From a virus (taxonomy: Duplodnaviria; Heunggongvirae; Uroviricota; Caudoviricetes), in IMG/VR virus record IMGVR_UViG_2693429582_000021, positions 1-11,066 of that record: a stretch of 11,066 nt of DNA; one strand, written 5' to 3'. Position 1 is the stretch's first letter; each line of letters begins with the position of its first letter. The notes below the pieces were generated by a model. The model was not told the origin of the DNA, did not search any database, and saw only the letters and a list, made by a program, of their open reading frames with translations. The position numbers and the translations under genes were made by a program. Shown here in pieces: positions 1 through 11,021 of this stretch.

Positions 1-34
1 GTATTCGCCGCCCGTATTCGTCAGGAGGTGCGCC

Positions 35-265
35 ATGTGCAATAAAAACACGCCGGACGCAGCAGGCGAAGCATTGAAAGTACTGATACATGCGCTTGTG
101 GATATAAATTGCATGGTAGAGATCATGGAGAGGAAATCACAGTCGGAGTACGACAAAAGAAAATTTAAAACAATAAAAATAATTACCAAAAACTCACTGA
201 CAAAAGCTACAGACATCCTCAATGAGGACACTAAAAGAATCAGGGAGAAACTGTGTGATGCATAA
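35..265 (+). CDS. hypothetical small protein (76 aa), first gene of plus-strand operon
   Basis: ORF with strong Shine-Dalgarno (AGGAGG at about 23-28) 6-8 nt upstream of the ATG at 35; no recognisable family from the translation. Confidence 0.5.
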   Translation: MCNKNTPDAAGEALKVLIHALVDINCMVEIMERKSQSEYDKRKFKTIKIITKNSLTKATDILNEDTKRIREKLCDA

Positions 266-485
266 AATACCTTTTGATGTTCTTATTCATTCTGAGAATG
301 CATTAATCCGCGCAAAGGAAATGGAGGCATTATTACTTAAGTTAATGGAAGTGCCGGAAAATGGCGATGAATCATATCCCATGATGTTTTCTGCCGTGCA
401 CACATTATTAACGCCAGTAATTAACGAATTAAATACGGTGATGGCAATTCACGAGAATAATAAAGCGCATCACACCGGAGAATAA
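258..485 (+). CDS. hypothetical small protein (about 75 aa from the ATG at 258; the ORF is open from 222)
   Basis: In-frame ATG at 258 preceded by GGGAGA about 9 nt upstream; overlaps the stop of the previous ORF (263-265), consistent with coupling. Function unknown. Confidence 0.4.
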   Translation: MHKIPFDVLIHSENALIRAKEMEALLLKLMEVPENGDESYPMMFSAVHTLLTPVINELNTVMAIHENNKAHHTGE

Positions 486-490
486 AAACC

Positions 491-790
491 ATGAAACAGA
501 AAAATTCTGGCTTTACTGCCAGCGGCCTCCCTCGGCCTGAAATCCGCCCCGGCGATATTTTCCGGGATAACTACGGCGGCACAGTAACGATTAAACACGT
601 GGCGGGACGGTGCGTTACTTACCGCCGTGATGGGTACGGCTATGACTGCGTGATGCCTGTTTATCAGTTCCGGCGTGATTTTTCCCTGGTACAGACTGCG
701 CCGCGTAACCAGCCCACCAGCAAAGAGAAGGCACGGGTAAATATTCAGGCCATAAGAAAAATGCTTAACGGATTCAGGGGTAAAAAATGA
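491..790 (+). CDS. hypothetical protein (99 aa), translationally coupled to the downstream primase-like gene
   Basis: GGAGA about 10 nt upstream of the ATG at 491; its stop overlaps the start of the next gene as ATGA (787-790). No family recognised. Confidence 0.5.
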   Translation: MKQKNSGFTASGLPRPEIRPGDIFRDNYGGTVTIKHVAGRCVTYRRDGYGYDCVMPVYQFRRDFSLVQTAPRNQPTSKEKARVNIQAIRKMLNGFRGKK

Positions 791-2919
791 AACTGGCACC
801 GAACGTAAAACTATTGCCGAAAGATAAAGGTGAGGAAGCAGTAATTTTTGTGGGGGATGACGCATACAGCCACGCAGAACATTACAGGCAGGGTGGAGAA
901 GCCGGAAAGCGCGGCGACAAAATACCGCCCGTTTATATCGGACGGCGTGACCTGGGTAATCTGGAAAACCTGCGTATTGTGGATGATGGCCGGTTACGCG
1001 TCATGGTCAGACGTGCCGGAAAGCTGGATGGCAAACAGGCGCTACAGATTGAAACCCTGCTCGCAGTAGCTGGTGTTAAGGAAGTCAGTTTTTGTGACGA
1101 GAACGGCGAACTACTGGAGGACTGGACACCACAGCTTGCCCGACTGAAAGACGAATACGAGCGTGGGGAAAGTCTGGTGTTGCCCTTAAAGAAAAAAATC
1201 ACAGAAAACCATGGCGATGATGAATTAAAGCCCCGCGTTGAAAGCCGCGCCGATGGTGTTTTCTGGGTAACGCCCAAAGTGGATAAGCAGTCAGGCGAAA
1301 TTATCCGGCCTGAGACGTGGTTATGTTCCCCGCTTGAACTACTGGGAACGGGAACAATCGGCAAAGAGCATTACCGCGTGATGCGCTGGAAAAAATTAGC
1401 AAATCATGAAGTCATCACAATGGCGATCCCGTGTGGTGGCATTGGCGACCGTGACGGCTGGCGGTTGCTGAAAGACCACGGTTTGAACGTGACAACCAAC
1501 GGTAAATACAGGGCTGTCCTGGCTGACTGGATGCAGTTAAGCGGAAGCCATGAGGAATGGCAGTTAAGCACAACAACGGGCTGGCATTTTGGCGCGTACA
1601 TCATGCCGGATGGTTCGGTCATTGGTGATTGCGAAAAGCCAGTCCTGTTTACCGGAAAAACGGCTGCCGTTAATGGTTATTCCGTGACAGGAACGGCGGA
1701 GGGCTGGCGCGACAGTGTGGCGCGACTGGCTGGTGGTAATCCGTCCATGATGCTGGGAGTGGCGGTATCGTTATCCGCACCATTAATCGGGCTGGTGGGC
1801 GCTGACGGCTTCGGGGTACATCTTTTCGAACAGTCATCGGCAGGGAAAACCACCACACAGAACATAGCATCAAGTTTATGGGGAGAGCCGGACGCGCAAC
1901 GGCTGACCTGGTACGGAACGGCGTTAGGTATCGCCAACGAGGCAGAGGCACACAACGACGGACTGTTACCACTGGATGAAATAGGCCAGGCCGGAAACGC
2001 GCGGGAGGTGTCCACATCGGCTTATACGCTGTTTAACGGTTCCGGTAAATTGCAGGGGGCGAAGGACGGCGGCAACAGGGAGATAAAACACTGGCGAACG
2101 GTGGCAATCAGTACCGGAGAAATGGACGTTGAGACATTCCTCAAAACGGAGGGGATAAAAGTCAAGGCGGGGCAGCTTGTCCGCCTGCTTAACGTGCCAA
2201 TGGAAAAAGCCACACAATTTCACGAATACAGCACCGGAAAGGCGCACGCAGACGCGTTAAAGGATGCCTGGACAGCAAATCACGGGGCGGCGGGGCGTGA
2301 GTGGGTTAAATGGCTGGCAGACCACCAGCAGGAGGCAAAGGATACAGTAAGGGAATGCCGTGAACGGTGGCGCAACCTGATACCGGAGAGCTACGGCGAG
2401 CAGGTCCACCGCGTGGGTGAGCGTTTCGCCATACTGGAGGCCGCACTTGTGCTTTCCGGTCATGTGACTGGCTGGGATGAGCAGGAATGCCGCGATGCCA
2501 TTCAGCATAATTTTAATGCCTGGGTGAAGGAGTTCGGCACGGGCAACAGGGAACACAGGCAGATTATTGAACAGGCTGAGGCGTTTCTTGCGGCCTATGG
2601 CCTGAGCAGGTTCGCCCCTGTCAATTATGACCCTGCCAGCCTGCCGATTTCAGAACTGTACGGCTACAGGGAAAGCGACGGGCGTTATGACGAGCCTGTT
2701 TTGTTTTACGTGCTGCCGGAGCCGTTTAGCTCACATGTGGCGAAGGGATTTAACAAGGATGCCGTAGCAAAGACCCTTCATGAAGCCGGAATGCTGAGAA
2801 AACCAGCCAGCGGGCGAGGATGGCAAATCAGGACACCACGGCTAAAACACCTGAAAGGGGCGCGGCTAAGAGTGTATGGCCTTTTGCTGACGCAGGACTA
2901 CGATGCTGAAAATGATTAA
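787..2919 (+). CDS. replication protein of integrative element/satellite: primase/helicase-like P-loop NTPase (DUF927/SF3-helicase-like architecture)
   Basis: 710-aa uninterrupted ORF; Walker A-like motif SSAGKTT (about nt 1840-1860) and Walker B-like hhhhDE (LLPLDEIG, about nt 1960-1985) in the middle of the protein; large N-terminal domain; immediately followed by an iteron array. Family assignment from pattern recognition, not a search. Confidence 0.8.
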   Translation: MKLAPNVKLLPKDKGEEAVIFVGDDAYSHAEHYRQGGEAGKRGDKIPPVYIGRRDLGNLENLRIVDDGRLRVMVRRAGKLDGKQALQIETLLAVAGVKEVSFCDENGELLEDWTPQLARLKDEYERGESLVLPLKKKITENHGDDELKPRVESRADGVFWVTPKVDKQSGEIIRPETWLCSPLELLGTGTIGKEHYRVMRWKKLANHEVITMAIPCGGIGDRDGWRLLKDHGLNVTTNGKYRAVLADWMQLSGSHEEWQLSTTTGWHFGAYIMPDGSVIGDCEKPVLFTGKTAAVNGYSVTGTAEGWRDSVARLAGGNPSMMLGVAVSLSAPLIGLVGADGFGVHLFEQSSAGKTTTQNIASSLWGEPDAQRLTWYGTALGIANEAEAHNDGLLPLDEIGQAGNAREVSTSAYTLFNGSGKLQGAKDGGNREIKHWRTVAISTGEMDVETFLKTEGIKVKAGQLVRLLNVPMEKATQFHEYSTGKAHADALKDAWTANHGAAGREWVKWLADHQQEAKDTVRECRERWRNLIPESYGEQVHRVGERFAILEAALVLSGHVTGWDEQECRDAIQHNFNAWVKEFGTGNREHRQIIEQAEAFLAAYGLSRFAPVNYDPASLPISELYGYRESDGRYDEPVLFYVLPEPFSSHVAKGFNKDAVAKTLHEAGMLRKPASGRGWQIRTPRLKHLKGARLRVYGLLLTQDYDAEND

Positions 2920-2944
2920 TCTCGCGTGTAGGCGGTAACAATAT

Positions 2945-3272
2945 GTTGTCCCAGTCGTCCCAGAAAGCAATAAGCAAGCGTAACATATTGAATTTTATAG
3001 ATTTCACTTGCAAAAAGTGGGACAACAGCGGGACAACATTCAGGCATTTTGGGACAACATTGCGGCATTTTGGGACGACACGACACGTATTTTTTACCGT
3101 GCCGAAGGGTGGGACAACGCAAAACCCCTCATGTCGTCCCAAAATCGGTAAATGTCGTCCCACTTTGCGGAGTGTGTTTTTAATAAAATCAATAAGTTAA
3201 CATTAAGTGGGACAACCGGGACAACTGGGACGACGTGTTTTGTATATATATACGAAAAATCGAGATCTGAAC
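2945..3272. repeat. iteron array plus AT-rich tract: putative replication origin
   Basis: About 12 copies of the 8-mer GGGAC(A/G)AC in both orientations (plus copies at 3019, 3030, 3051, 3072, 3111, 3209, 3218, 3227; inverted copies GT(T/C)GTCCC at 2945, 2954, 3133, 3154). Three copies sit in a 21-bp tandem unit CATT..GGCATTTTGGGACAAC (3030/3051/3072). An AT-rich stretch TGTATATATATACGAAAAAT (3241-3260) follows. Position directly 3' of the replication gene matches rep-ori organisation in satellites and plasmids. Confidence 0.7.
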
Positions 3273-3273
3273 T

Positions 3274-3516
3274 ATGAAGTCAAACCGCAAACAACCACAC
3301 TACCGCGCCATTGACCTTACAGAGCACTGGCTGAGAGTGGCGATAAAAATCATCGACCGCAACACGGGGGAAGGATACGCGAAAGCACACCCCGAACTGA
3401 TAAGCGCATTCATGGCAACGGCGGCAGCAAACTTTGCCACGCTGACAGAACGGGAGATTGCCGAATCGGAACAGGTGACAACCATCAACATTAAAACCGG
3501 AGAGCAGACAGCATGA
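3274..3516 (+). CDS. hypothetical protein (80 aa)
   Basis: ORF beginning just after the AT-rich tract; its stop overlaps the next start (ATGA at 3513-3516). No family recognised. Confidence 0.5.
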   Translation: MKSNRKQPHYRAIDLTEHWLRVAIKIIDRNTGEGYAKAHPELISAFMATAAANFATLTEREIAESEQVTTINIKTGEQTA

Positions 3517-3935
3517 CAGCACAGATAGCGGCTTACGGGCGGCTGGTGGCTGACCCGCAGTTAAAGACCACCAGCAAAGGGACACAAATGGCGATGGCGA
3601 GTATGGCGGTTCCCCTGCCGTGCAGCCAGGCCGATGACGGAACGGCGACGATGTGGTTATCCGTCCTGGCGTTTGGCAGACAGGCCGACGCACTGGCCAG
3701 ACACCACAAAGGCGAACTGGTGAGCGTGGCGGGTAACATGCAGGTAAGCCAGTGGACAGGCCAGAACGGCGAAACGCGGCAGGGCTGGCAGGTTATCGCA
3801 GACAGCGTAATCAGTGCGCGAACGGCGCGACCGGGCGGCAAAAAAGGTCAACAGGGCCAGGCTACTGACGCGCTGAACAGGGCAAAACAACAGGCGGGTA
3901 ATGATGATCCGTACGAAGACAACATACCGTTTTAA
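3513..3935 (+). CDS. single-stranded DNA-binding (SSB-like, OB-fold) protein
   Basis: 140-aa translation shows an SSB-like pattern: N-terminal GRLVADPQLK resembling E. coli SSB GNLGQDPEVR, conserved W...FG...A...KG..V...G......W....G..R spacing, and a Gly/Gln-rich tail ending in acidic residues plus DNIPF (SSB tails end D-D-D-I-P-F). Confidence 0.7.
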   Translation: MTAQIAAYGRLVADPQLKTTSKGTQMAMASMAVPLPCSQADDGTATMWLSVLAFGRQADALARHHKGELVSVAGNMQVSQWTGQNGETRQGWQVIADSVISARTARPGGKKGQQGQATDALNRAKQQAGNDDPYEDNIPF

Positions 3936-3971
3936 TTCACAACAGCGAACAGAGTTATTACAGGGGAAAGC

Positions 3972-4496
3972 ATGACAAAGCTGACCATTAACCGAAAACC
4001 GAAAGGCATTTACGGCACGCTGCAGAAAACGACGCAGGCGATACAGCAGCAGGATAAAACCACATCGGCGCATAAAGTGATACCCGGCAATCAGAACGCA
4101 CAGCAGAAGCCCACAGGGGCGACACCGTGGCGGCATATGACCAAACGCCAGCGCAAAAACCGCAGACGCGTTAACCGCCTTACTGAGATGTGGCCTGACT
4201 TATTCAGCCGGGAAGCGCCAAAACCGCTGAAGGTGGGGATATTCGACGACCTGATGCAGGATATCGCCGTCAGGGGGCTGGCATTCGGGCCGGGGGCATT
4301 ACGTGCGACGCTGGCATCTTATGCGCAGTCTCCACGCTATTACCGCGCCTTAATGGCTGGTGGGGTACGCTACGACCTGAAAGGCCAGCCATGTGGCGAG
4401 GTGACATCACAGGAACAACAGGACGCAGAAACGCGGCTGATGATGCTGAATGAGAAGCGTAAACGCCGGACAGCAAAGGAGAAGACAGGCGCATGA
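3972..4496 (+). CDS. FinO/ProQ-family RNA-binding protein (RNA chaperone)
   Basis: 174-aa ORF; the C-terminal two thirds align with the F-plasmid FinO core (WP.LF....P.L..GI.D.L..D.A.R...., Y...M.AG..RYD..G); basic N- and C-terminal tails typical of the family. SD-like GGGGAAA upstream of the ATG. Confidence 0.8.
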   Translation: MTKLTINRKPKGIYGTLQKTTQAIQQQDKTTSAHKVIPGNQNAQQKPTGATPWRHMTKRQRKNRRRVNRLTEMWPDLFSREAPKPLKVGIFDDLMQDIAVRGLAFGPGALRATLASYAQSPRYYRALMAGGVRYDLKGQPCGEVTSQEQQDAETRLMMLNEKRKRRTAKEKTGA

Positions 4497-4780
4497 TTCG
4501 TGACAGCAAAGCGGAAGAACTGGAGGCTAAAGGGCTGTACCGAAGAGCGACGGCGCGGTGGGCTGAGGTTATGCAACTGGTGAACACCGATAAGGAGCGC
4601 GAACAGGCGGCAAAGCGTCGCGCGGAATGTATCCGTAAGGCAGCACGCCCACCCGTTATGGCGGATAACTTCGGAGCGCTGAAAGAGGCTGTAAACCGCA
4701 CTCATGCGGTGATGGGGATGGAAGACGCGGGTAAATCCGTCTGGCGGAACTATCCAAAGCAGCCGGGCAATAATCAGTGA
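4493..4780 (+). CDS. small regulator, possibly PerC/Pch-family transcriptional activator
   Basis: 95-aa ORF coupled to the FinO-like gene (ATGA overlap at 4493-4496). N-terminus MIRDSKAEELEAKGLYRRATARWAEV resembles my recollection of PerC/Pch N-termini; the family call is tentative. Confidence 0.4.
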   Translation: MIRDSKAEELEAKGLYRRATARWAEVMQLVNTDKEREQAAKRRAECIRKAARPPVMADNFGALKEAVNRTHAVMGMEDAGKSVWRNYPKQPGNNQ

Positions 4781-4862
4781 TGCCGGATATTATCCTGAAA
4801 AATGACCATCACTCCCGTGGGCGGATAACATAAAATCCTGCATATACGCAGATACACAGACG

Positions 4863-4887
4863 AAGCCGGAACACTCCGGCTTTTTTT
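4863..4887 (+). terminator. rho-independent terminator ending the plus-strand replication/regulatory operon
   Basis: Stem AAGCCGGA / TCCGGCTT with loop ACAC, followed by a run of seven T (4881-4887). Confidence 0.7.
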
Positions 4888-4965
4888 ACGGGTCCTTCCA
4901 GAGGGGTGGCCTTACCGCGAGGCGACGGACGCGCGGAAATCGCCAAATTTTCGCATTTTTATCGG
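4888..4965 (+). other. cos-like site A (diverged cosQ-cosN-cosB-like sequence)
   Basis: ACGGGTCCTTCCAG (4888-4901) matches the lambda cosQ-region motif ACGGGTCCTTTCCGG. About 32 nt downstream, GAGGCGACGGACG CGCGGAAATCGCC AAATTTTCGCATTTTTATCGG parallels lambda GGGCGGCGACCT CGCGGGTTTTCGC TATTTATGAAAATTTTCCGG, roughly 65-70% identity by eye. Confidence 0.45.
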
Positions 4966-5233
4966 TCATCACCACCAGCGCAATTTATTGATAATGAAGG
5001 TTAAAAAAATTCCTGGTGTCGAAAACGCCTGTTTTTTGTTCACCACTGAATCATGCCGCATCACGATAACCCACAAGGCTGGTGGTGATGCGTTATGGTC
5101 CCTACGTTGCCATCCCCCTGACCTCATGGCATTATCCGGCGTGAACGAGCGGTTATTCTCCGTACTCTTAATCGTTGTTCATGGTTATTTGCTTTGTGGT
5201 AGCTTACATTTCCTGATGGTTATTATCCTTCCG

Positions 5234-5257
5234 CCCCGTAATCACGGGGTTTTTTTT
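5234..5257 (+). terminator. rho-independent terminator inside the non-coding region
   Basis: Perfect hairpin CCCCGT-AATC-ACGGGG followed by eight T (5250-5257). No credible upstream CDS, so it may terminate a small RNA; the 128-aa ORF 4988..5374 reads straight through it. Confidence 0.6.
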
Positions 5258-5295
5258 GTCTGCGATTTGCCGTTCTCCGTTGCGCTGGTGGTAAC

Positions 5296-5331
5296 GTCAC
5301 GATGTGTCACGACATGTCACCATCACGTCAC
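5296..5331. promoter_or_regulatory. phased array of four GTCAC motifs at about 10-bp spacing (putative protein-binding site)
   Basis: GTCAC at 5296, 5306, 5316 and 5327 within aacGTCACgatgtGTCACgacatGTCACcatcacGTCACg; one helical turn apart, which would place all sites on the same face of the DNA. Confidence 0.4.
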
Positions 5332-5720
5332 GCTGATGGCGAAAGTCAGGGTTAACCAGTACCGGAACGGGTAGCCCGATGTACTGTTACCGTTCTGCTG
5401 GCTGGTGGAGTAATTGATAACGGTTATCATCAATGGGAGGGGTGGATCAAATCCCTGTAGTCCTGGCTGTCAGGGACCGCCGCCCAACCCTTCTTCACAT
5501 CGCCGCAGGTTCGAAAACTTTTTTTTGGGAAGGTGCGCACAGACTTGATAGATAAAACCTATCAGACAAAACCACGCCAACCCCGCGCCATTGCTGGCAT
5601 CGTTAAAAAAACTCACTCCACCAGCAGGCTAAAAAACCGTGATTTTTCCGGTTTTATGGGCTGAAAAGGGGCTCCCTAAAAAACACCTCTTACACTGCCG
5701 GACAGGGGCGGTGACTTTTC

Positions 5721-5850
5721 ACGGGTCCTTTCCGGGGATCTGAAACACCACGGGGCGGCAGACGCGCAGATTTTCACTATTTATAAAAATTTTTCAGGGA
5801 AAAAGCATGTCGGTACTTCTTGCATGTAACATTATGTTTTTATTGCAACT
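5721..5850 (+). other. cos: cos site B: lambda-like cosQ, cosN and cosB upstream of terS
   Basis: 5721-5735 ACGGGTCCTTTCCGG is identical to the lambda cosQ-region motif. 5753-5764 GGGCGGCAGACG aligns with lambda cosN GGGCGGCGACCT. The following CGCAGATTTTCAC TATTTATAAAAATTTTTCAGGG ... CTTCTTGCATGTAAC ATTATGTTTTTATT parallels lambda cosB. The cosN-to-terS-start distance (189 nt) is essentially that of lambda cosN to Nu1 (about 190 nt). Confidence 0.75.
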
Positions 5851-5941
5851 AACTATCATAAACATACGACACCATAACGCCGGAAAATCCCGTTTTTCAG
5901 GCGTTTCATGTCGGAGGTGGTTTTTGATGAGGATTTGATAA

Positions 5942-6526
5942 ATGAATGTTAACAAAAAGAGACTGGCGGAGATTTTCGGTGTTGATCCGCGCACAATTGA
6001 GCGCTGGCAGATGCAAGGGCTTCCCCATGTATCTGGTGGCGGAAAAGGTGTGGAGGTGACTTTCGACTCTGCACAGGTGATCGAATGGTATGTACAGAGG
6101 GAGAAGGAGATCGAAAACGAAAAACTCCGCAGGGAGCTTGATGATTTACGTGCTGCTGGTGAATCAGATTTACAGCCAGGCACAACAGAGTACGAACGCT
6201 ACCGTCTCACCAAAGCACAGGCGGACGGGCAGGAACTGAAGAACGCCAGAGAGACAGGGGAAGTTATAGATACTGAGTTCGTACTCTGTGCGCTTCGTGG
6301 ACTGGCGAGTCAGATTTCTTCGATCATGGATAGTTTGCCGCTCACAATGCAAAGGCAGTTCCCCGGGATGACTCCGGCAATGCTCGATGGCCTGAGGAAG
6401 GAAACAGCACGAGCCTGTAATGCGTGCGCTAAAACTGCCGATAACCTACCCCGCATTCTGGAAGACTATCTGATGGAAACAACCGGAAACGTGCCGGAGA
6501 AGTTACGGCAACAGAAAGGTGAGTGA
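5942..6526 (+). CDS. terS: terminase small subunit, lambda Nu1 family (orphan; no terL follows)
   Basis: 194-aa translation closely parallels lambda Nu1 over the N-terminal wHTH and ATP-binding region: [49 protein letters not shown]...LR.A.E.DLQPGT.EYER.RLT.AQAD.QELKNAR. The C-terminal 40 aa diverge. Nothing resembling a large terminase follows on either strand. Confidence 0.9.
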
Positions 6527-6553
6527 CAACCGCGCAATTATTGAACAAAACTG

Positions 6554-6616
6554 AGAAAGGATCTGATAACGTTATTTTTGGCCCAAAATGACCACTGTCA
6601 GATCCTTTCTTTTTCT
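6554..6616. terminator. large palindrome downstream of terS, possible bidirectional terminator or protein-binding site
   Basis: Perfect 13-bp inverted repeat AGAAAGGATCTGA (6554-6566) / TCAGATCCTTTCT (6598-6610) with an inner ATTTTTGG-C-CCAAAAT hairpin, followed by TTTTTC on the plus strand. Confidence 0.45.
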
Positions 6617-6619
6617 GAT

Positions 6620-6753
6620 GATTTTACGATTAAACAATGAGTTACAGAGAAGAAGAACGGATCTGACTTTTCCCGAAAAATTTTCATAAACAGTTAAGAA
6701 TTGCGCGTATCCGTACCCCCGGCGCTCAAGATTCTGGAAAGGACCCGTGACAC
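6620..6753 (-). other. cos-like site C (inverted orientation relative to cos B)
   Basis: Minus strand reads TCACGGGTCCTTTCCAGAATCTTGAGCGCC GGGGGTACGGAT ACGCGCAATTCTTAAC TGTTTATGAAAATTTTTCGGG AAAAG TCAGATCCGTTCTTCTCTGTAACTCATTG. This parallels lambda cosQ / cosN / R3 / TATTTATGAAAATTTTCCGG / CGTTTCCGTTCTTCTTCGTCATAACTTAATG. The cosQ-to-cosN spacing is about 4 nt shorter than in site B. Confidence 0.65.
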
Positions 6754-6760
6754 CTGACCA

Positions 6761-6783
6761 ACAAAAAAGCCCCCGAAGGGGGC
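6761..6783 (-). terminator. rho-independent terminator of the minus-strand toxin-immunity operon
   Basis: Hairpin GCCCCC-GAA-GGGGGC (6768-6782) with an A-run at 6762-6767 on plus, giving a T-run after the stem on minus, immediately 3' of the immunity gene stop at 6788. Confidence 0.7.
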
Positions 6784-6787
6784 TAAA

Positions 6788-7036
6788 TTACGCATCTTTA
6801 AAACTGGATTTGCCATTAGCTAAACGCCAGGTTTTAACTTCTTGTACGATGGCTTCCGGACTATCGTCTTTTCCGTTCTCTGGATAAAAAATTAGATCAG
6901 AGCCTGATGGATGTTCAGAGAGGCGCCTGAATTCTCTGACTAACTGCTCGCTTTCTTTTTCTGTTCCTTCTGCATTACATATTTTTCGAACAAGATCTAA
7001 GAATTCATTTTCAGTATAGTCGTTTATTGTTTTCAC
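6788..7036 (-). CDS. colicin/pyocin DNase immunity protein, Im7/Im9 family
   Basis: 82-aa translation [24 protein letters not shown]....[40 protein letters not shown] matches Im9 (…SDYTEAEFLQLVTTICNA….[40 protein letters not shown]). GTG start 1 nt after the toxin stop, with AGGGGA SD inside the toxin 3' end. Confidence 0.85.
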
Positions 7037-7037
7037 G

Positions 7038-8729
7038 TTATTTTCCCCTGTGAATTTCTATATGCCGCTTTGGTGTTGTGATACCCATATTATCAACGTT
7101 ATAAACTTCGCCCCCCTCACTTATAGGTTTAATATGGTGTATTTCGTAACGTTCCCTCCCACCAACTCGCTCCACTTCCCTTGTGAATGGTGAACGTCCT
7201 TTGCGAATGTTCGTGAGGTTGTGTGCTCTGAACTGTCTTGACAAATCAGCATCGTTTGCCACTTCTGCCCAAAATGCCTCCCTGAATCGATCAAAATTCG
7301 CAAATGTTCGCCCACGCATCCGCTCCGCAATCTGGCTGGGTACTGGTGCACCATTTCCCTTATCGGCATCCACCAGCCACGCCCCGCTAATTTTTTGTCC
7401 TTTCCCTGTTACCTGCCCGGCGTTATTCCTGATGTAAATATAAATCGGCGGTATATCCGGGAATGGCAGGATCAGAATGTAATCCGCAAAATCCTTTTCT
7501 TCCGGGGCCGGGCTGGTTGTGGCGTGTAATCCCGTGTCATCCGGTAACGGGTCCACCATCACCGGATTCGGCAGCACTGGCGGGTACTGATTTCCCGTGT
7601 GGTACGGTACATCAATCCCCGGATTATCCGGCGTCCAGATGAGTGTGATACGCGGGTCTTCCTCCGTGGTGAATGTGTACGCCTTTCGTCTGTCGTCCCA
7701 CTCCATCCGGCGCACGCGCACCCTGTCCTGTCCCGGTGGCGTATGCCAGCCATGCGGAACGGGGTTCCCCCGGCTGTTCGTCTCCCAGGTAAAGCGAACA
7801 CGGGTAGGCACTTCCCTAGCCTGTTCGGCCCTCATACGGTCGATAAAATCCTGTTCCCCGTCATTCAGCCGACCGGGCATCATCCCTATCAGAAACGCCG
7901 CCAGTGGCAGCCCCGCAACCCCGGTCGCAGTTTCACCCACGACGGCCCACGTTCCCCGGATGGCAAAATTCCCCGCCACCGGACGCAGAACGCTCGCCCC
8001 GGCAATTGCCGCTCTGGCCCGTTGTGCGCGCTCCGCTTCTTCAACCGCACGCTGATAATCCATTTCCTCGTGATGGCCGTTCCACCATTTCCACAGTGCA
8101 CTGCGTTTCTTCGGCTTCGGGATATCCTCCGGCGCAACCAGTTTTTTCTTTTTGACCGCCTGTGCACGCTGCGGGGTTTCCGTGTCCGTCACCGGGTCAG
8201 TCTGCGGAACGGCCTGATAAATCCCCATCGGTGCAAAGTTGGTATGCGGCTCCCGCTGGTCGCCCGCGTCGTTGCATCCCTCACCGCGCAGACAGGATTT
8301 TGCAAACACCCGGTTACGTTCCCGTTCTTCCTCCCGGCGTTTTTCTTCAGCTTCCCGTTCTGCCTTGCGTTGTGCTATCAGTTCCGCCTGTTTTTTCTGT
8401 GCAATTTCTGCCGGCGACGGCCCCGCCCCCATCCACTGACCGAGCGGGGCAATAATCCGGTTTGAACCTTCAGGGCAGCCACAGTGAACAACACAGCCAT
8501 CAACGGCAATAGGAATATCTATCACCTTAAAACGGGCTTCTCCTTCTGCCACCATGCCGAGCTTTCCGCACGCCGGGCAGGGGGTGGTTTTGTCCCCCTT
8601 ACGAATAAGACCGTAACCACAGACGTTGTAGTTAGGGACAGGAAGGGAAGTAATCAGCCATGCGCCGGTGGTGGTTTTGTCACAGGAAAGCGCCATTCCC
8701 CTGCCGTGTATATCCGGCCTGTATGTCAT
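7038..8729 (-). CDS. polymorphic nuclease toxin: Cys-rich N-terminal domain, charged coiled-coil linker, pyocin-S-like region, C-terminal colicin E9-type HNH DNase
   Basis: The 563-aa C-terminus ([49 protein letters not shown]…[42 protein letters not shown]) matches the colicin E9/E7 DNase domain including the HNH motif. N-terminal 100 aa carry six Cys in CxxC and CxCGC clusters (possible Zn-binding, PAAR-like GD.T..C..CG pattern). Residues about 115-145 form a Lys/Glu/Arg-rich linker. No signal peptide. Resembles chromosomal bacteriocin-like genotoxins such as Usp, unverified. Confidence 0.9.
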
Positions 8730-9217
8730 GGCTTACACTCCGGCACTACCAGAAAATCCGCTGGCATACTTTCGCCTTCACGACAACAAAGTAATGCTGT
8801 TCGCTGCGGCGTACTGATAATTTCATCCCCGTTATCCAGTTGGCTGCCAACCAGCGCATACCCTTTCCCGTGACAGCTAAACGCACTGCCGGAACCACTG
8901 ACAATACGGGCCGTTGTGCCGTCCTGATAAGTCACCTCATCCCCGACCATCGCCATTTCAGCCATCTCTCCGGTGCTGTCAGCGACTTCGCAGCCGGAAC
9001 TGGCGGAAGACACCACCCCGCCATTACGGGTAAGGCTACCGGTAATGGCATGTCGCCAGATAGCCACTATCGGATGTTGACGGCAAAATTCCTCCTGCTC
9101 CCTGATTATCGCCAGCGCATCATCGGACATATCAGCAAGCGCTTCTTCTGTAAAAGGGGATTTATCCAGTTCTGCCAGTACATCGGCGGTCAGTTCGTTG
9201 GTATATTGCTTCATCAT
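8726..9217 (-). CDS. hypothetical 163-aa protein upstream of the toxin, possibly PAAR-like or adaptor
   Basis: Start MM at 9217 with AGGAAA SD-like upstream; stop overlaps the toxin start (ATGA coupling at 8726-8729). Acidic N-terminal 50 aa, then a Gly/Ser-rich region with repeated VGD and GS motifs (MAMVGDEVTYQDG, IVSGSGSAFSCHGKGYALVGS) reminiscent of PAAR repeats, and a Cys-containing C-terminus. Confidence 0.6.
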   Translation of the reverse strand: MMKQYTNELTADVLAELDKSPFTEEALADMSDDALAIIREQEEFCRQHPIVAIWRHAITGSLTRNGGVVSSASSGCEVADSTGEMAEMAMVGDEVTYQDGTTARIVSGSGSAFSCHGKGYALVGSQLDNGDEIISTPQRTALLCCREGESMPADFLVVPECKP

Positions 9218-10050
9218 GTTTCTGTTTTTCCTGTGGTTAACAATCGACCAGAATCATAATGAAAGGGAATGCAAAAAAATTGATGGATATCAAAATGAAA
9301 AATAAAATCATCCCGGTAAAACAGGATATCTACCCCACCAGCATCCCTGGATTTTCAGATAGTTGCTTTTAGCCTCTGAACAACATCTGCTGGTGGCTGA
9401 TAATTACAATAATTCCTGCCCCCTGGCGTTTCTGAGCATGTTTACCGCGAATTTTGCGCAAAACACCTTAACAATTCTTAAATTTTAAAAACACTTCAGT
9501 GATAAGCATCACCGCTCCCGCTCACATTTGACACAGGCAACTCCATCTGGCAGGTGAAAATCAAATTTATTTATATATTTCAATTGATTGTAAACTGGTC
9601 TAATGACAGGGGAGAAAAAAGACTGTACAGGTGAAAACAGAAATAATTTTTAATTATCAATGAATTATCACACATGCTGCCGCCGCCATGAAAATGCAAA
9701 AACTAGCCGTTTTCTGCGCATCCGTCGCCCCGCGGTAAGGGGCACCCCACCGGGAGGACCCACGACGATCAGGGCGTTTTATCAACGTCGTGTGTTATGC
9801 CGGATTAACTGCGTACGTAATACGTGCACATCCCGAACAGGAGCAGCCAGAATCAGCGCCGCTGACGTTGTTTTGTGGTTATCCCCCTGTCATGAATCAT
9901 CGCAATGGTTTTATGTGTTCTGCGTTGCGCTGGTGGGTTATTCCACCATTGGTGGGAAACATGGCACCACATCCACCAGCTTAAACGCGCTTCACCTTCC
10001 CGGCATCAGTCGCCACAATTACGGCATTGCTTTCCATCACCACGGAGGCC

Positions 10051-10341
10051 ATGACCATGACCGAAGCCGAAATGCTCAAAATGATTCGCCGTGCTGCCGG
10101 AATCAGCCAGGCAGCAGGCAAACAGGAGGCCACGCAACCGGACAGCGTGATAGCCGAAAATTACGCGCGTGTGGTGGCTGATGTGATGCGCCGTGACGGT
10201 ATCGAGCTTAACGGCGTGGATATGCGCGATATACGAACCAGAGTTCTCGAGTTGCTGGCATGTCGTCGCCGTTCTCAGCAACGGAGGGAGAGCGCGAAAA
10301 ATACTTACCAGTGGAAGAAGCCGGAGCGGTTACGGCGGTAG
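10051..10341 (+). CDS. hypothetical protein (about 95 aa; the ORF is open from a TTG at 10027)
   Basis: GGAGG at 10044-10048 with ATG at 10051 and 10057; basic C-terminus; no family recognised. Confidence 0.45.
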   Translation: MTMTEAEMLKMIRRAAGISQAAGKQEATQPDSVIAENYARVVADVMRRDGIELNGVDMRDIRTRVLELLACRRRSQQRRESAKNTYQWKKPERLRR

Positions 10342-10577
10342 TGTCAGCATGATTTGCGAGGTAGTAATACTGACTCGCAACAGAGTGACCGATAGCCACC
10401 CTGTTCAACCGTTCCGGCTGGCTGGGCAGATTTTGCGCGGGTCTTATAGTCCCTCACAACAGAGTAAATAAAATTGACTTGGTTACAGAGTAACCAAACC
10501 GGAGATTCCCGGTTTGCTCAAAAAATGACAATGAGTTACGCCCCCTAACCTAAGTAATCCTTACATTCACTGCATCA

Positions 10578-10592
10578 TCACCATGATGGTGA
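10578..10592. promoter_or_regulatory. 7-1-7 palindrome TCACCAT-G-ATGGTGA (candidate operator)
   Basis: Perfect 7-bp inverted arms in an intergenic region. Confidence 0.3.
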
Positions 10593-10706
10593 CGCAGCCC
10601 ACCAGCAACCATAACGATTTCCGTTACAGTTGATGTGCTTTTTTGCTGGTAAGGCGTAACCCGTTGATTGTTCCAGAATCCCCCATTGGGGGAAGCTGAA
10701 AAACTC

Positions 10707-10731
10707 ACCCACCAGATTCTGAATGGTGAAA
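10707..10731. promoter_or_regulatory. 9-7-9 palindrome CTGAATGGT-gaaaatg-ACCATTCAG (hairpin or operator)
   Basis: Perfect 9-bp inverted repeat; shares the ATGGTGA core with the palindrome at 10578; a second hairpin CCCGAAA…TTTCGGG follows at about 10747-10773. Confidence 0.3.
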
Positions 10732-10976
10732 ATGACCATTCAGCTTCATGTGTCCATTTTCCCGAAACAGGAAAACCCGTTTTCGGGAGAAGGTGCGATC
10801 ATGTTCGTCATACCTGTTCCGTTGAAACGGTAATACCCCATTCCGGCGTAGCTGGTGGGTATGATGCCGATGCCGGGATCTCGGTATCGGTTTATCCGTG
10901 ATCATCCACCAGCTTGATAACGGATAACAGGGAGTCATAACGGTTAAAATTGTATACTTTTGCAGCAAACATTTTT

Positions 10977-11021
10977 AGCTACACGTTAAGCTACACGATT
11001 TTTGAGTTGAAATTTTCAACT
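10977..11021. promoter_or_regulatory. direct repeat AGCTACACG x2 followed by palindrome AGTTGAAA/TTTCAACT (candidate regulatory site for a gene beyond the window)
   Basis: AGCTACACGTTAAGCTACACG, then GAGTTGAAATTTTCAACTTCAAC; AT-rich context at the window edge. Confidence 0.3.

Follow-up and report, generated by a model that had tools for sequence, protein, structure and literature searches.

A 163-residue protein encoded in an 11,066-nucleotide stretch of viral DNA (the window) belongs to a distinct subfamily of PAAR-repeat (spike-tip fold) proteins. Its gene, here PAAR-T, lies upstream of a toxin gene, and the pair is unusual because the toxin itself opens with a PAAR cone: residues 1-95 of the toxin form a second complete, Cys-rich cone (PAAR-C). 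Our preferred reading, to which we assign a probability of about 0.5, is that PAAR-T belongs, as a dedicated accessory (an adaptor, a chaperone or a co-tip), to the module that delivers the PAAR-C effector, within an orphan type VI secretion system (T6SS) cassette whose mechanism we infer. Delivery of the toxin by a T6SS is expected from its relatives.

In current T6SS models each VgrG trimer carries a single PAAR protein, and PAAR-fused toxins count as self-sufficient "specialised effectors". A second, toxin-less PAAR cone hard-wired before PAAR-toxins departs from this one-PAAR-per-spike picture, and the two-PAAR arrangement appears to be undescribed in the searchable literature. Published surveys record such toxins as "lone" PAAR genes; the likely reason is that the small protein escapes recognition as a PAAR in many pipelines.

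The small PAAR protein and its operon

The predicted open reading frame is real. It starts with an ATG that is followed one codon later by a second in-frame ATG, and RefSeq entries are 162 or 163 residues long according to which is used. The protein had been described as unassigned, which was mistaken, as RefSeq already names it 'PAAR domain-containing protein'. Its N-terminus is acidic and helical, as had been proposed: residues 1-47 have a pI of 4.05 (12 D/E versus 4 K/R), and the structure model places three helices at residues 11-18, 24-29 and 32-47. The most conserved stretch of the homologue alignment comprises residues 1-10 (mean majority fraction 0.78), with N7 invariant and Q4, Y5, L9, T10 and, further on, F22 nearly so. 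The extension has no match in Pfam or NCBIfam.

The Gly/Ser-rich, beta-like region was likewise borne out, residues 48-140 being all-beta in the model with 35% Gly/Ser/Thr. To call its repeats PAAR-reminiscent was right and could have been put more strongly: residues 59-135 match Pfam PF05488 at 29.4 bits (cutoff 27) across profile positions 1-70 of 70, many homologues carry precomputed PF05488 hits, and 82-83 residues of the model superpose on solved PAAR proteins at 1.8-1.9 Å. The model has the conical, three-fold pseudo-symmetric beta fold, made up of three PAAR-type motifs, that marks PAAR-repeat proteins. With its complete PAAR cone, the protein agrees at the level of fold with the earlier suggestion of a second spike-tip component. 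A family profile of PAAR-T gave no match to PDB sequences. A metal site of the PAAR type was not found, as no Cys is invariant or nearly invariant among 44 homologues and H48 (84%) is the sole conserved residue of Cys/His type. In the PAAR-repeat family at large, whose members bind the blunt end of a VgrG or gp5-type beta-helix, conserved His/Cys residues close to the tip make up a Zn site in typical stand-alone PAARs such as c1882 and VCA0105, though not in all. Distant relatives carry PGLFDPxYVP in place of the C-terminal MPxDFL.

The genes run in the order PAAR-T, PAAR-C toxin, immunity gene and terminator, forming a self-contained, orphan operon (Table 1). The toxin matches the Pfam models Col-Pyo_DNase (3e-52), Pyocin_S (1.9e-29) and, under the cutoff, PAAR_motif (22.6 bits), and has a local NCBIfam match to the model for the VPA1263 T6SS DNase effector. 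Its cone, which the original prediction had missed, is a canonical PF05488-type Cys-rich PAAR rather than a DUF4150 protein, and it lacks a transmembrane prePAAR region. Operons of S-type pyocins and colicins combine a Pyocin_S translocation-type domain, a nuclease and a cognate immunity gene, and their killing protein is released by lysis and has no domain that targets it to a secretion system. The toxin has Pyocin_S and Col-Pyo_DNase domains and an immunity gene, but at its N-terminus the PAAR cone takes the place of a receptor-binding domain, and PAAR-T itself has no counterpart in bacteriocin operons. None of the PADLOC anti-phage defence models matched PAAR-T, the toxin or the immunity protein, and an Rfam scan of the whole window returned no match.

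Table 1 Features of the PAAR-T operon and its surroundings in the window
Feature	Position	Strand	Description
Intrinsic terminator	6768..6784	-	AGCCCCCTTCGGGGGCT then T-run, directly after the immunity stop; ends the three-gene operon
Immunity protein	6788..7036	-	82 aa, colicin/pyocin DNase immunity protein; Pfam PF01320, 7.4e-33
Polymorphic toxin	7038..8729	-	563 aa; PAAR-C cone, charged linker, Pyocin_S, colicin/pyocin HNH DNase
PAAR-C cone of toxin	8445..8729	-	Residues 1-95; C51, C54, C83 and C85 nearly invariant (CxxC...CxC)
PAAR-T gene	8726..9217	-	163 aa; Cys-free PAAR-repeat protein with N-terminal extension
ATGA stop/start overlap, PAAR-T/toxin	8726..8729	-	TGA 8726-8728, toxin ATG 8727-8729; read from the sequence
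PAAR-T C-terminal tail	8729..8797	-	Residues 141-163; F155-L156 (MPxDFL) invariant in homologue alignment
Shine-Dalgarno of toxin	8738..8741	-	GGAG, inside the PAAR-T 3' end, 8 nt upstream of the toxin start
PAAR-T cone	8798..9076	-	Residues 48-140; three A-x-(T/V)-G-(S/D) motifs: AITGS, AMVGD, ALVGS
PAAR-T N-terminal extension	9077..9217	-	Residues 1-47; conserved MxxQYTNELT peptide, then three acidic helices
Putative attR of island	10972..10987	+	16-bp direct repeat; 16-mer shared with E. coli C5

The ATGA overlap between PAAR-T and the toxin was confirmed. It supports co-transcription and possible translational coupling and nothing beyond, so that the stoichiometric co-expression read from it went further than the evidence. 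A tight junction is the rule among related loci and no chance of one window: among 73 related pairs the genes overlap in 14, lie 0-12 nt apart in 39 and 13-30 nt apart in 5, and are more widely spaced in 15. Such tight or overlapping junctions are kept from gamma- to beta-proteobacteria, and the form CCGGAGxGTAA...ATGGG recurs in other loci. The two genes were also considered as one frameshifted reading frame. This was rejected, as the toxin starts from a separate ATG preceded by its own GGAG, and stop codons occur in the 3- to 12-nt spacers of other loci.

The operon is cargo of a phage-satellite-like island of ~13.9 kb. In E. coli C5, one copy of the 16-mer that forms its putative attR is found at L001 2381, in the interval from tRNA-Pro to the integrase, and another at L001 16270; the 16-mer has a single match in the window and none in 200 shuffles. 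An exact-repeat search found no att repeat of at least 15 nt inside tRNA-Pro, the 16-mer lying further downstream. The small terminase of the island is lambda Nu1-like, which suggests that its helpers are siphoviruses, whose spike is not capped by a PAAR. This island, and prophages elsewhere, carry the whole cassette of effector, immunity and accessory genes between strains.

Distribution and modular evolution of the pair

PAAR-T lies directly upstream of a PAAR-C gene in every assessable locus, and the pair spans Enterobacterales, Pseudomonas, Burkholderia, Chromobacterium and prophages. Hundreds of bacterial species have the arrangement, in which the second PAAR carries or recruits a toxin: more than 200 instances were counted in species-representative genomes, and it is seen in 360 sequence clusters. 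No vgrG or other T6SS family recurs among the 140 upstream neighbours of 72 PAAR-T loci, and the neighbourhoods inspected individually are free of T6SS genes. For PAAR genes in general, vgrG has been reported within five upstream genes in 45.6% of cases (PMC8651086).

PAAR-T co-varies with the PAAR module of its partner, and exchange affects the other end of the cassette, with the toxin and immunity parts. Some variants carry two PAAR-T cones in one chain, among them one from Burkholderia that is paired with a PAAR-C of 180 aa. In distant relatives (P0309, P0329 and P0355) the PAAR-T module is joined to an XRE/HigA-type HTH_37 domain, and these too precede a PAAR-C gene; RefSeq names these fusions 'XRE family transcriptional regulator'. 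Between orders, subtype-specific co-evolution was not seen, as PAAR-T identity between Pseudomonas and Enterobacterales is 0.415 with the same partner subtype and 0.434 with a different one.

Relatives of the toxin were gathered with the full-length protein as query, its first 105 residues alone giving 2 matches. The original prediction had held that absence of the gene from otherwise identical toxin loci would speak against its reading, and this was found in part. In Enterobacter bugandensis, toxins that share 54% identity across their N-terminal module and as much as 66% over the full length have an intact reading frame in dozens of assemblies without a PAAR-T gene upstream, and their C-terminal domain has nonetheless been exchanged. 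The gene is present in E. cloacae, E. coli and others. A direct comparison of the ends, where a global DNA alignment with intact PAAR-T is uninformative, is suggestive of a PAAR-T gene reduced to a deletion scar at the E. bugandensis locus. These partner-less toxins argue against an absolute requirement for PAAR-T in cis: it is dispensable at least in cis, and the dependence is one-sided, as related PAAR-toxins persist without it.

Possible roles of PAAR-T

An accessory role in delivery is favoured because PAAR-T is always found before a PAAR-toxin and not with vgrG, co-varies with the PAAR module and shows a one-way dependence. PAAR-T and the PAAR cone of the toxin make up the constant 'delivery' half of the cassette, and the toxin tip and immunity gene its exchangeable half. 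Domains like the Cys-rich PAAR-C cone attach effectors to the T6SS spike formed by VgrG, and the cone would do so here; PAAR-T, made together with the effector, would bind either the effector or the adjacent VgrG tip, and this binding may stabilise the effector or load it onto any VgrG available in the host. The chaperone or adaptor mechanism that the original prediction offered, and physical contact between PAAR-T and the toxin, we infer. Several observations count against this reading: the lack of subtype-specific co-evolution between orders, the dispensability of PAAR-T in cis, the Yersinia locus of YPK_0952, where the upstream gene is not a PAAR, and the base-forming motifs with which PAAR-T could cap VgrG itself.

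It is possible, though doubtful, that PAAR-T and PAAR-C form a physical two-cone complex, either as a pre-complex or as a spike with two PAAR modules. In a pre-complex the cones would meet base to base or side by side, with PAAR-T as a PAAR-fold placeholder or chaperone for the other PAAR until VgrG takes over. The variants with a double cone or an HTH dimerisation domain hint at a 2:1 stoichiometry. Should the cones work together, PAAR-T would represent a new kind of accessory factor, add a new assembly step to spike loading and serve as a marker for finding orphan effectors. A true two-cone complex would amount to a previously unrecognised class of T6SS accessories, widespread in gamma- and beta-proteobacteria, and would explain how portable orphan effector cassettes plug into foreign T6SSs.

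Alternatively, PAAR-T could be an independent, toxin-less structural tip that caps VgrG trimers without touching the toxin, and that accompanies the cassette to ensure a compatible tip or to offer an alternative, non-toxic one. Its cone is complete, and its three canonical, base-forming A-x-V/T-G-D/S motifs imply that capping of VgrG by PAAR-T itself is possible; a PAAR is required for firing in many T6SSs (PMC10715212); and both the lack of subtype-specific co-evolution and the dispensability in E. bugandensis are compatible with no direct contact. However, a tip of this kind is expected in T6SS clusters or beside vgrG, whereas the subfamily is found only upstream of PAAR-C, with conserved tight junctions. 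It would also compete with the toxin of its own operon for the single PAAR site of each VgrG trimer, and where a single chain holds two PAAR-T cones, only one of them could sit on a given spike. We regard this alternative as unlikely. A regulator that binds or senses the PAAR-toxin and controls operon expression or toxin release, in the manner of an antitoxin or autoregulator, is quite improbable. The HTH_37 fusions occupy the same place upstream of PAAR-C, but the PAAR-T of the window has no DNA-binding domain and a strongly acidic extension, and the toxin is already neutralised by a separate immunity protein. The HTH could moreover be delivered cargo, like the Yersinia T6SS effector CccR, which acts as a transcription factor in recipient cells (PMC9755527). 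Regulation of toxin activation, as originally suggested, is disfavoured in its toxin-domain-specific version, since the partners of this one small PAAR have toxin domains as different as DNase, Tle1-like lipase and Ntox44, as well as unknown ones.

A role outside the T6SS, with the PAARs on the spike of a phage, tailocin or other contractile tail, or with PAAR-T aiding export or uptake of an S-type bacteriocin, is very improbable. Phage spike tips are among the best structural matches (P1 UpfC, T4 gp5.4, phiKZ gp163.1), the operon resides on a phage-satellite-like island and in prophages, PAAR-T and the toxin both fall into PHROG families of unknown function, and the toxin has its Pyocin_S domain. 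Yet tblastn against 50,697 phage genomes gave no match, the terminase of the island is of the Nu1 type, and a phage with a toxin at the tip of its virion would kill the very cell on which it depends. In addition, the partner toxins include typical T6SS payloads (the Tle1-like lipase and Ntox44) with cognate immunity genes, and the closest characterised relative is T6SS-secreted.

Comparison with known systems

PAAR-T differs from the canonical stand-alone PAARs of PF05488, E. coli c1882 and V. cholerae VCA0105, in having no conserved Cys/His metal site and in adding the 47-residue acidic helical extension and the conserved C-terminal tail. It is also not found beside vgrG or in a T6SS cluster, but always directly upstream of another PAAR gene. 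The PAAR-Pyocin_S effectors Yersinia YPK_0952 and Enterobacter 'Ppp1-3' are kin of the downstream toxin, not of PAAR-T. From YPK_0952 it is known that a protein of this architecture can be secreted by a T6SS (T6SS-3) and act as a DNase that its immunity protein neutralises (PMC7813860, PMC11237486), and Ppp1-3 are described as lone PAAR-Pyocin_S genes (PMC10763514); a small upstream PAAR is mentioned in neither set of papers. YPK_0951 was considered as a PAAR-T homologue and rejected, as the gene upstream of YPK_0952 encodes CccR, a FIC-HTH protein.

Most chaperones and adaptors of PAAR effectors are typically encoded immediately upstream of their effector, and PAAR-T likewise is encoded directly upstream of, and co-inherited with, a PAAR effector. 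The Pantoea DcrB/Eag gene upstream of a PAAR-Rhs gene is an example of this arrangement. Accessories that engage the PAAR domain ahead of its mounting on VgrG include DUF2169/TvpA, which forms a pre-complex with the VgrG-like TvpC, DUF1795/Eag, and the DUF4123 protein TecT with co-TecT; TvpC resembles a spike component in structure and serves as a placeholder (PMC13373197). By analogy, PAAR-T would be a PAAR-fold version of such an accessory. It falls outside DUF1795/Eag, DUF4123/Tap-Tec, DUF2169/TvpA and DUF6484/TvpC, as Pfam and NCBIfam return PAAR_motif only.

A PAAR-like cone with an N-terminal extension is also found in Francisella IglG (DUF4280), whose extension reportedly recruits the partner IglF. 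Unlike PAAR-T, IglG belongs to the DUF4280 family, has a Cys-based metal site, is encoded inside a secretion-system island and has a partner that is not a PAAR. Its helical extension is functionally required (Rigard et al. 2016). A parallel in modular design is found in the orphan Enterobacterales effectors with the N-terminal delivery domain PIX (also MIX, FIX and RIX), which likewise form polymorphic cassettes with a constant delivery module and exchangeable toxin and immunity ends. PIX binds VgrG (preprint 10.1101/2023.07.16.549128). Identity of PAAR-T with PIX was set aside on the basis of the descriptions: PIX lies within the effector protein and has not been described as a PAAR, whereas the PAAR-T/PAAR-C module consists of two genes and two cones.

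The PAAR-T operon and its island

PAAR-T, a small, Cys-free PAAR protein, is encoded by a genuine 163-aa ORF on the minus strand. The ATGA overlap with the toxin start described in the original prediction was confirmed, with the PAAR-T TGA and the toxin ATG at positions 8726-8729, and a GGAG can be read 8 nt upstream of the toxin ATG. An immunity gene and then a terminator follow the two genes, so the three genes form one operon. The protein had also been accurately described as an acidic helical N-terminus joined to a Gly/Ser-rich beta-like region: the first 47 residues, with a pI of 4.05, are acidic and form three helices in the model, and residues 48-140 are all-beta, with Gly, Ser and Thr making up 35 %. 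PAAR-T itself is a known kind of protein, a PAAR. In the toxin, the Cys-rich PAAR cone (PAAR-C) matches PAAR_motif below the threshold, at residues 17-86. This cone is followed by a highly charged stretch rich in Glu, Arg and Lys (residues ~100-150), probably a helix judging from its sequence, and a Lys-rich patch lies at residues ~190-215; both stretches are kept in Pyocin_S-type relatives and are missing from Pseudomonas partners.

Features of the PAAR-T operon and the surrounding island (window coordinates)
Feature	Position	Strand	Remarks
Phage-satellite-like (PICI-type) island	1-10987		most of the island; 2381-16285 in L001 (E. coli C5)
Intrinsic terminator, strong	6784-6768	minus	after immunity gene
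Colicin/pyocin immunity gene	6788-7036	minus	directly after toxin
Toxin, 563 aa	7038-8729	minus	Pyocin_S and colicin/pyocin HNH DNase domains
PAAR-T gene	8726-9217	minus	163 aa
104-aa ORF	10027-10341	+	between operon and attR; matches phrog_1561, E 2.7e-49
16-bp direct repeat TTTTTAGCTACACGTT	10972-10987		right copy; repeat at both island ends

The cassette is cargo of an island of ~13.9 kb that adjoins tRNA-Pro between yejM and yejO and is also listed in IMG/VR as viral contigs of 13.2-13.7 kb. The island encodes an integrase, AlpA, Icd-like and DUF4222 proteins, a DUF927 primase-helicase, SSB, ProQ/FinO, PerC and a Nu1-like small terminase. The 104-aa ORF is kept in all island copies; related genomes annotate it as a hypothetical protein of 94 aa. 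Neither the ~1.16 kb between PerC and the small terminase (4781-5941) nor the ~0.8 kb upstream of the operon (9218-10026) contains a convincing ORF, an Rfam match or, on the relevant strand, a strong sigma-70 consensus; the former is possibly a cos or packaging region. No T6SS family recurs among the 140 genes immediately upstream of PAAR-T (72 loci), and T6SS genes were absent from the annotated PAAR-T neighbourhoods examined; the PAAR-T/toxin/immunity cassette is an orphan. That a satellite carries a T6SS-type effector cassette may be noteworthy on its own.

Distribution of the PAAR-T/PAAR-C pair

A word-indexed search returned 247 PAAR-T homologues, all from Enterobacterales and 153-176 aa long. 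Scanning one genome per species with a pattern gave 218 loci from Enterobacterales and Pseudomonas, and a profile search run exhaustively over 1.84 billion cluster representatives yielded 360 clusters. The best 150 of these 360 clusters are all ≤313 aa long, and accordingly no PAAR-T is fused to a toxin. Across 80 fetched loci, the gene 3' of PAAR-T starts by encoding a Cys-rich PAAR module, of which there are at least three sequence subtypes, and its sequence diverges after that; loci lacking a long downstream ORF are contig ends or decayed PAAR-C genes (frameshift or IS insertion). Junctions are tight (overlap in 14/73, spacing of 0-12 nt in 39/73). The pair is also present on viral contigs, at five loci; in one of them, a 42.8-kb prophage, it follows a tail-fibre-like gene. 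Among complete E. coli genomes, the PAAR-T gene occurs in only 3 of 5,426, and two of these three carry another toxin C-terminal domain and another immunity gene (DUF6392). Those two loci (L002 8135-10793; L003 5873-9792) match the window in PAAR-T and in the N-terminal two-thirds of the toxin, and their contexts are IS-rich and non-satellite; in STEC346 the toxin gene is split by an IS3 element.

The pair also recurs in more distant lineages, with its parts in other arrangements. In Chromobacterium (L102 6001-8516), the cassette sits inside a TniB/TniQ transposon-like element. It has a fusion of HTH_37 to PAAR-T that overlaps a distinct CPKC-type PAAR of 189 aa; next come a 280-aa protein, whose C-terminus is Gly-rich and hydrophobic, and a DUF7079 gene, taken to be the immunity gene. 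The HTH fused to the PAAR-T cone (proteins P0309, P0329 and P0355) is of the XRE/HigA-type HTH_37, and RefSeq names such fusions 'XRE family transcriptional regulator'. Double-PAAR-T proteins (P0269, P0273 and P0279) are 220-227 aa long with cones in tandem, and one of their sequence clusters counts 43 members; those with names are all from Burkholderia, mostly B. cepacia. At the B. cepacia locus (L099 6001-7915), such a two-cone chain shares an ATGA overlap with its partner, a 180-aa Cys-rich PAAR-like protein, and an Aspzincin_M35 protease-like gene follows.

A search of ~8 million full texts, covering tandem, paired or adjacent PAARs, PAAR chaperones and PAAR-pyocin effectors, found no description of the PAAR-T/PAAR-C pair. 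The new element is the PAAR-T subfamily, paired obligately with another PAAR, and two PAAR cones per effector cassette would be unexpected to a T6SS specialist.

Association of PAAR-T with the delivery module

Among 58 pairs, PAAR-T identity correlates with that of the partner's N-terminal 95 residues (Spearman 0.44, Mantel p=0.001), and its correlation with that of the C-terminal 140 is only weak (0.14). In many comparisons, identity is 80-90 % for PAAR-T and 85-96 % for PAAR-C, with toxin tips only 14-20 % identical; among the tips are DNase, Tle1-like lipase, Ntox44 and unassigned domains. No sign of subtype-specific co-evolution of PAAR-T and PAAR-C between orders was seen. Because identity tracks PAAR-C while the tips vary, PAAR-T belongs to the constant delivery module and not to the toxin/immunity module, which disfavours a toxin-specific chaperone, activator or inhibitor.

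PAAR-T is absent from part of the otherwise similar toxin loci: among relatives of the toxin, the E. coli and E. cloacae loci have it (in E. cloacae, 3 nt separate the end of the 160-aa gene from the toxin) and those of E. bugandensis and Salmonella do not. In E. bugandensis, where 250 bp lie between the toxin start and a divergent CLC-channel gene, a six-frame HMM search found no PAAR-T. The short upstream stretch (L103 2440-2500; L107 2440-2500) retains an RBS, ATG and AACGAACTCACT, which matches exactly the N-E-L-T codons in a PAAR-T gene of Enterobacter, and then jumps to the conserved CCGGAGxGTAA...ATGGG junction. It is an apparent deletion scar of PAAR-T with the toxin intact. Tips at this locus differ by strain, being DNase or CdiI_5-type (L111, DNase with colicin-type immunity and a CdiI_5 remnant; L103, CdiI_5-type), so it has remained evolutionarily active without a cis PAAR-T. 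In Salmonella enterica (L108 2501-6644), a PAAR-Pyocin_S-DNase toxin of another PAAR subtype (LAKLGDKTTSGG...CPKCKG...CHCP) and its immunity gene adjoin a DUF927 primase-helicase gene, so Salmonella satellite-like islands may hold an analogous effector at the same cargo position. Upstream of the gene for the characterised effector YPK_0952, Yersinia encodes CccR, a FIC-HTH protein. Thus, PAAR-T is not universally essential. At assessable loci PAAR-T never occurs without PAAR-C, but PAAR-C does occur without PAAR-T, a one-sided dependence expected of an accessory factor and not of an independent structural tip.

A possible role in effector loading

By analogy, the cassette is probably linked to the T6SS. 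YPK_0952 (PAAR, Pyocin_S and DNase), a relative of the partner toxin, is exported through T6SS-3 in Yersinia and is lethal to competitors (PMC7813860, PMC11237486), and Enterobacter relatives are the putative effectors Ppp1-3, termed 'lone' PAAR genes (PMC10763514). Partner toxins also carry typical T6SS effector payloads, and we regard a role outside the T6SS, in a contractile tail or bacteriocin, as the least probable explanation. Shneider and colleagues are said to have described, in 2013, one PAAR site per VgrG trimer. With one such site, and base-forming motifs kept in both cones, two co-expressed cones would either compete or cooperate.

We favour cooperation, with a probability of about 0.5: PAAR-T may be an accessory that binds PAAR-C, or the spike tip alongside PAAR-C, and this binding would stabilise or load the effector. 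The invariant upstream position, tight coupling, membership of the delivery module and one-sided dependence all argue for this reading, as do the double-PAAR-T and HTH-PAAR-T variants, which cannot be simple tips. That PAAR-T is an independent, toxin-less tip is unlikely, since it always accompanies PAAR-C and the one-sided dependence better fits an accessory. The HTH fusions are the sole pointer to a regulator, which is improbable given that the PAAR-T extension in the window is acidic and domain-less. For a cooperating accessory, precedents exist in DUF2169/TvpA and the VgrG-like placeholder TvpC, which bind PAAR domains before their transfer to VgrG (PMC13373197).
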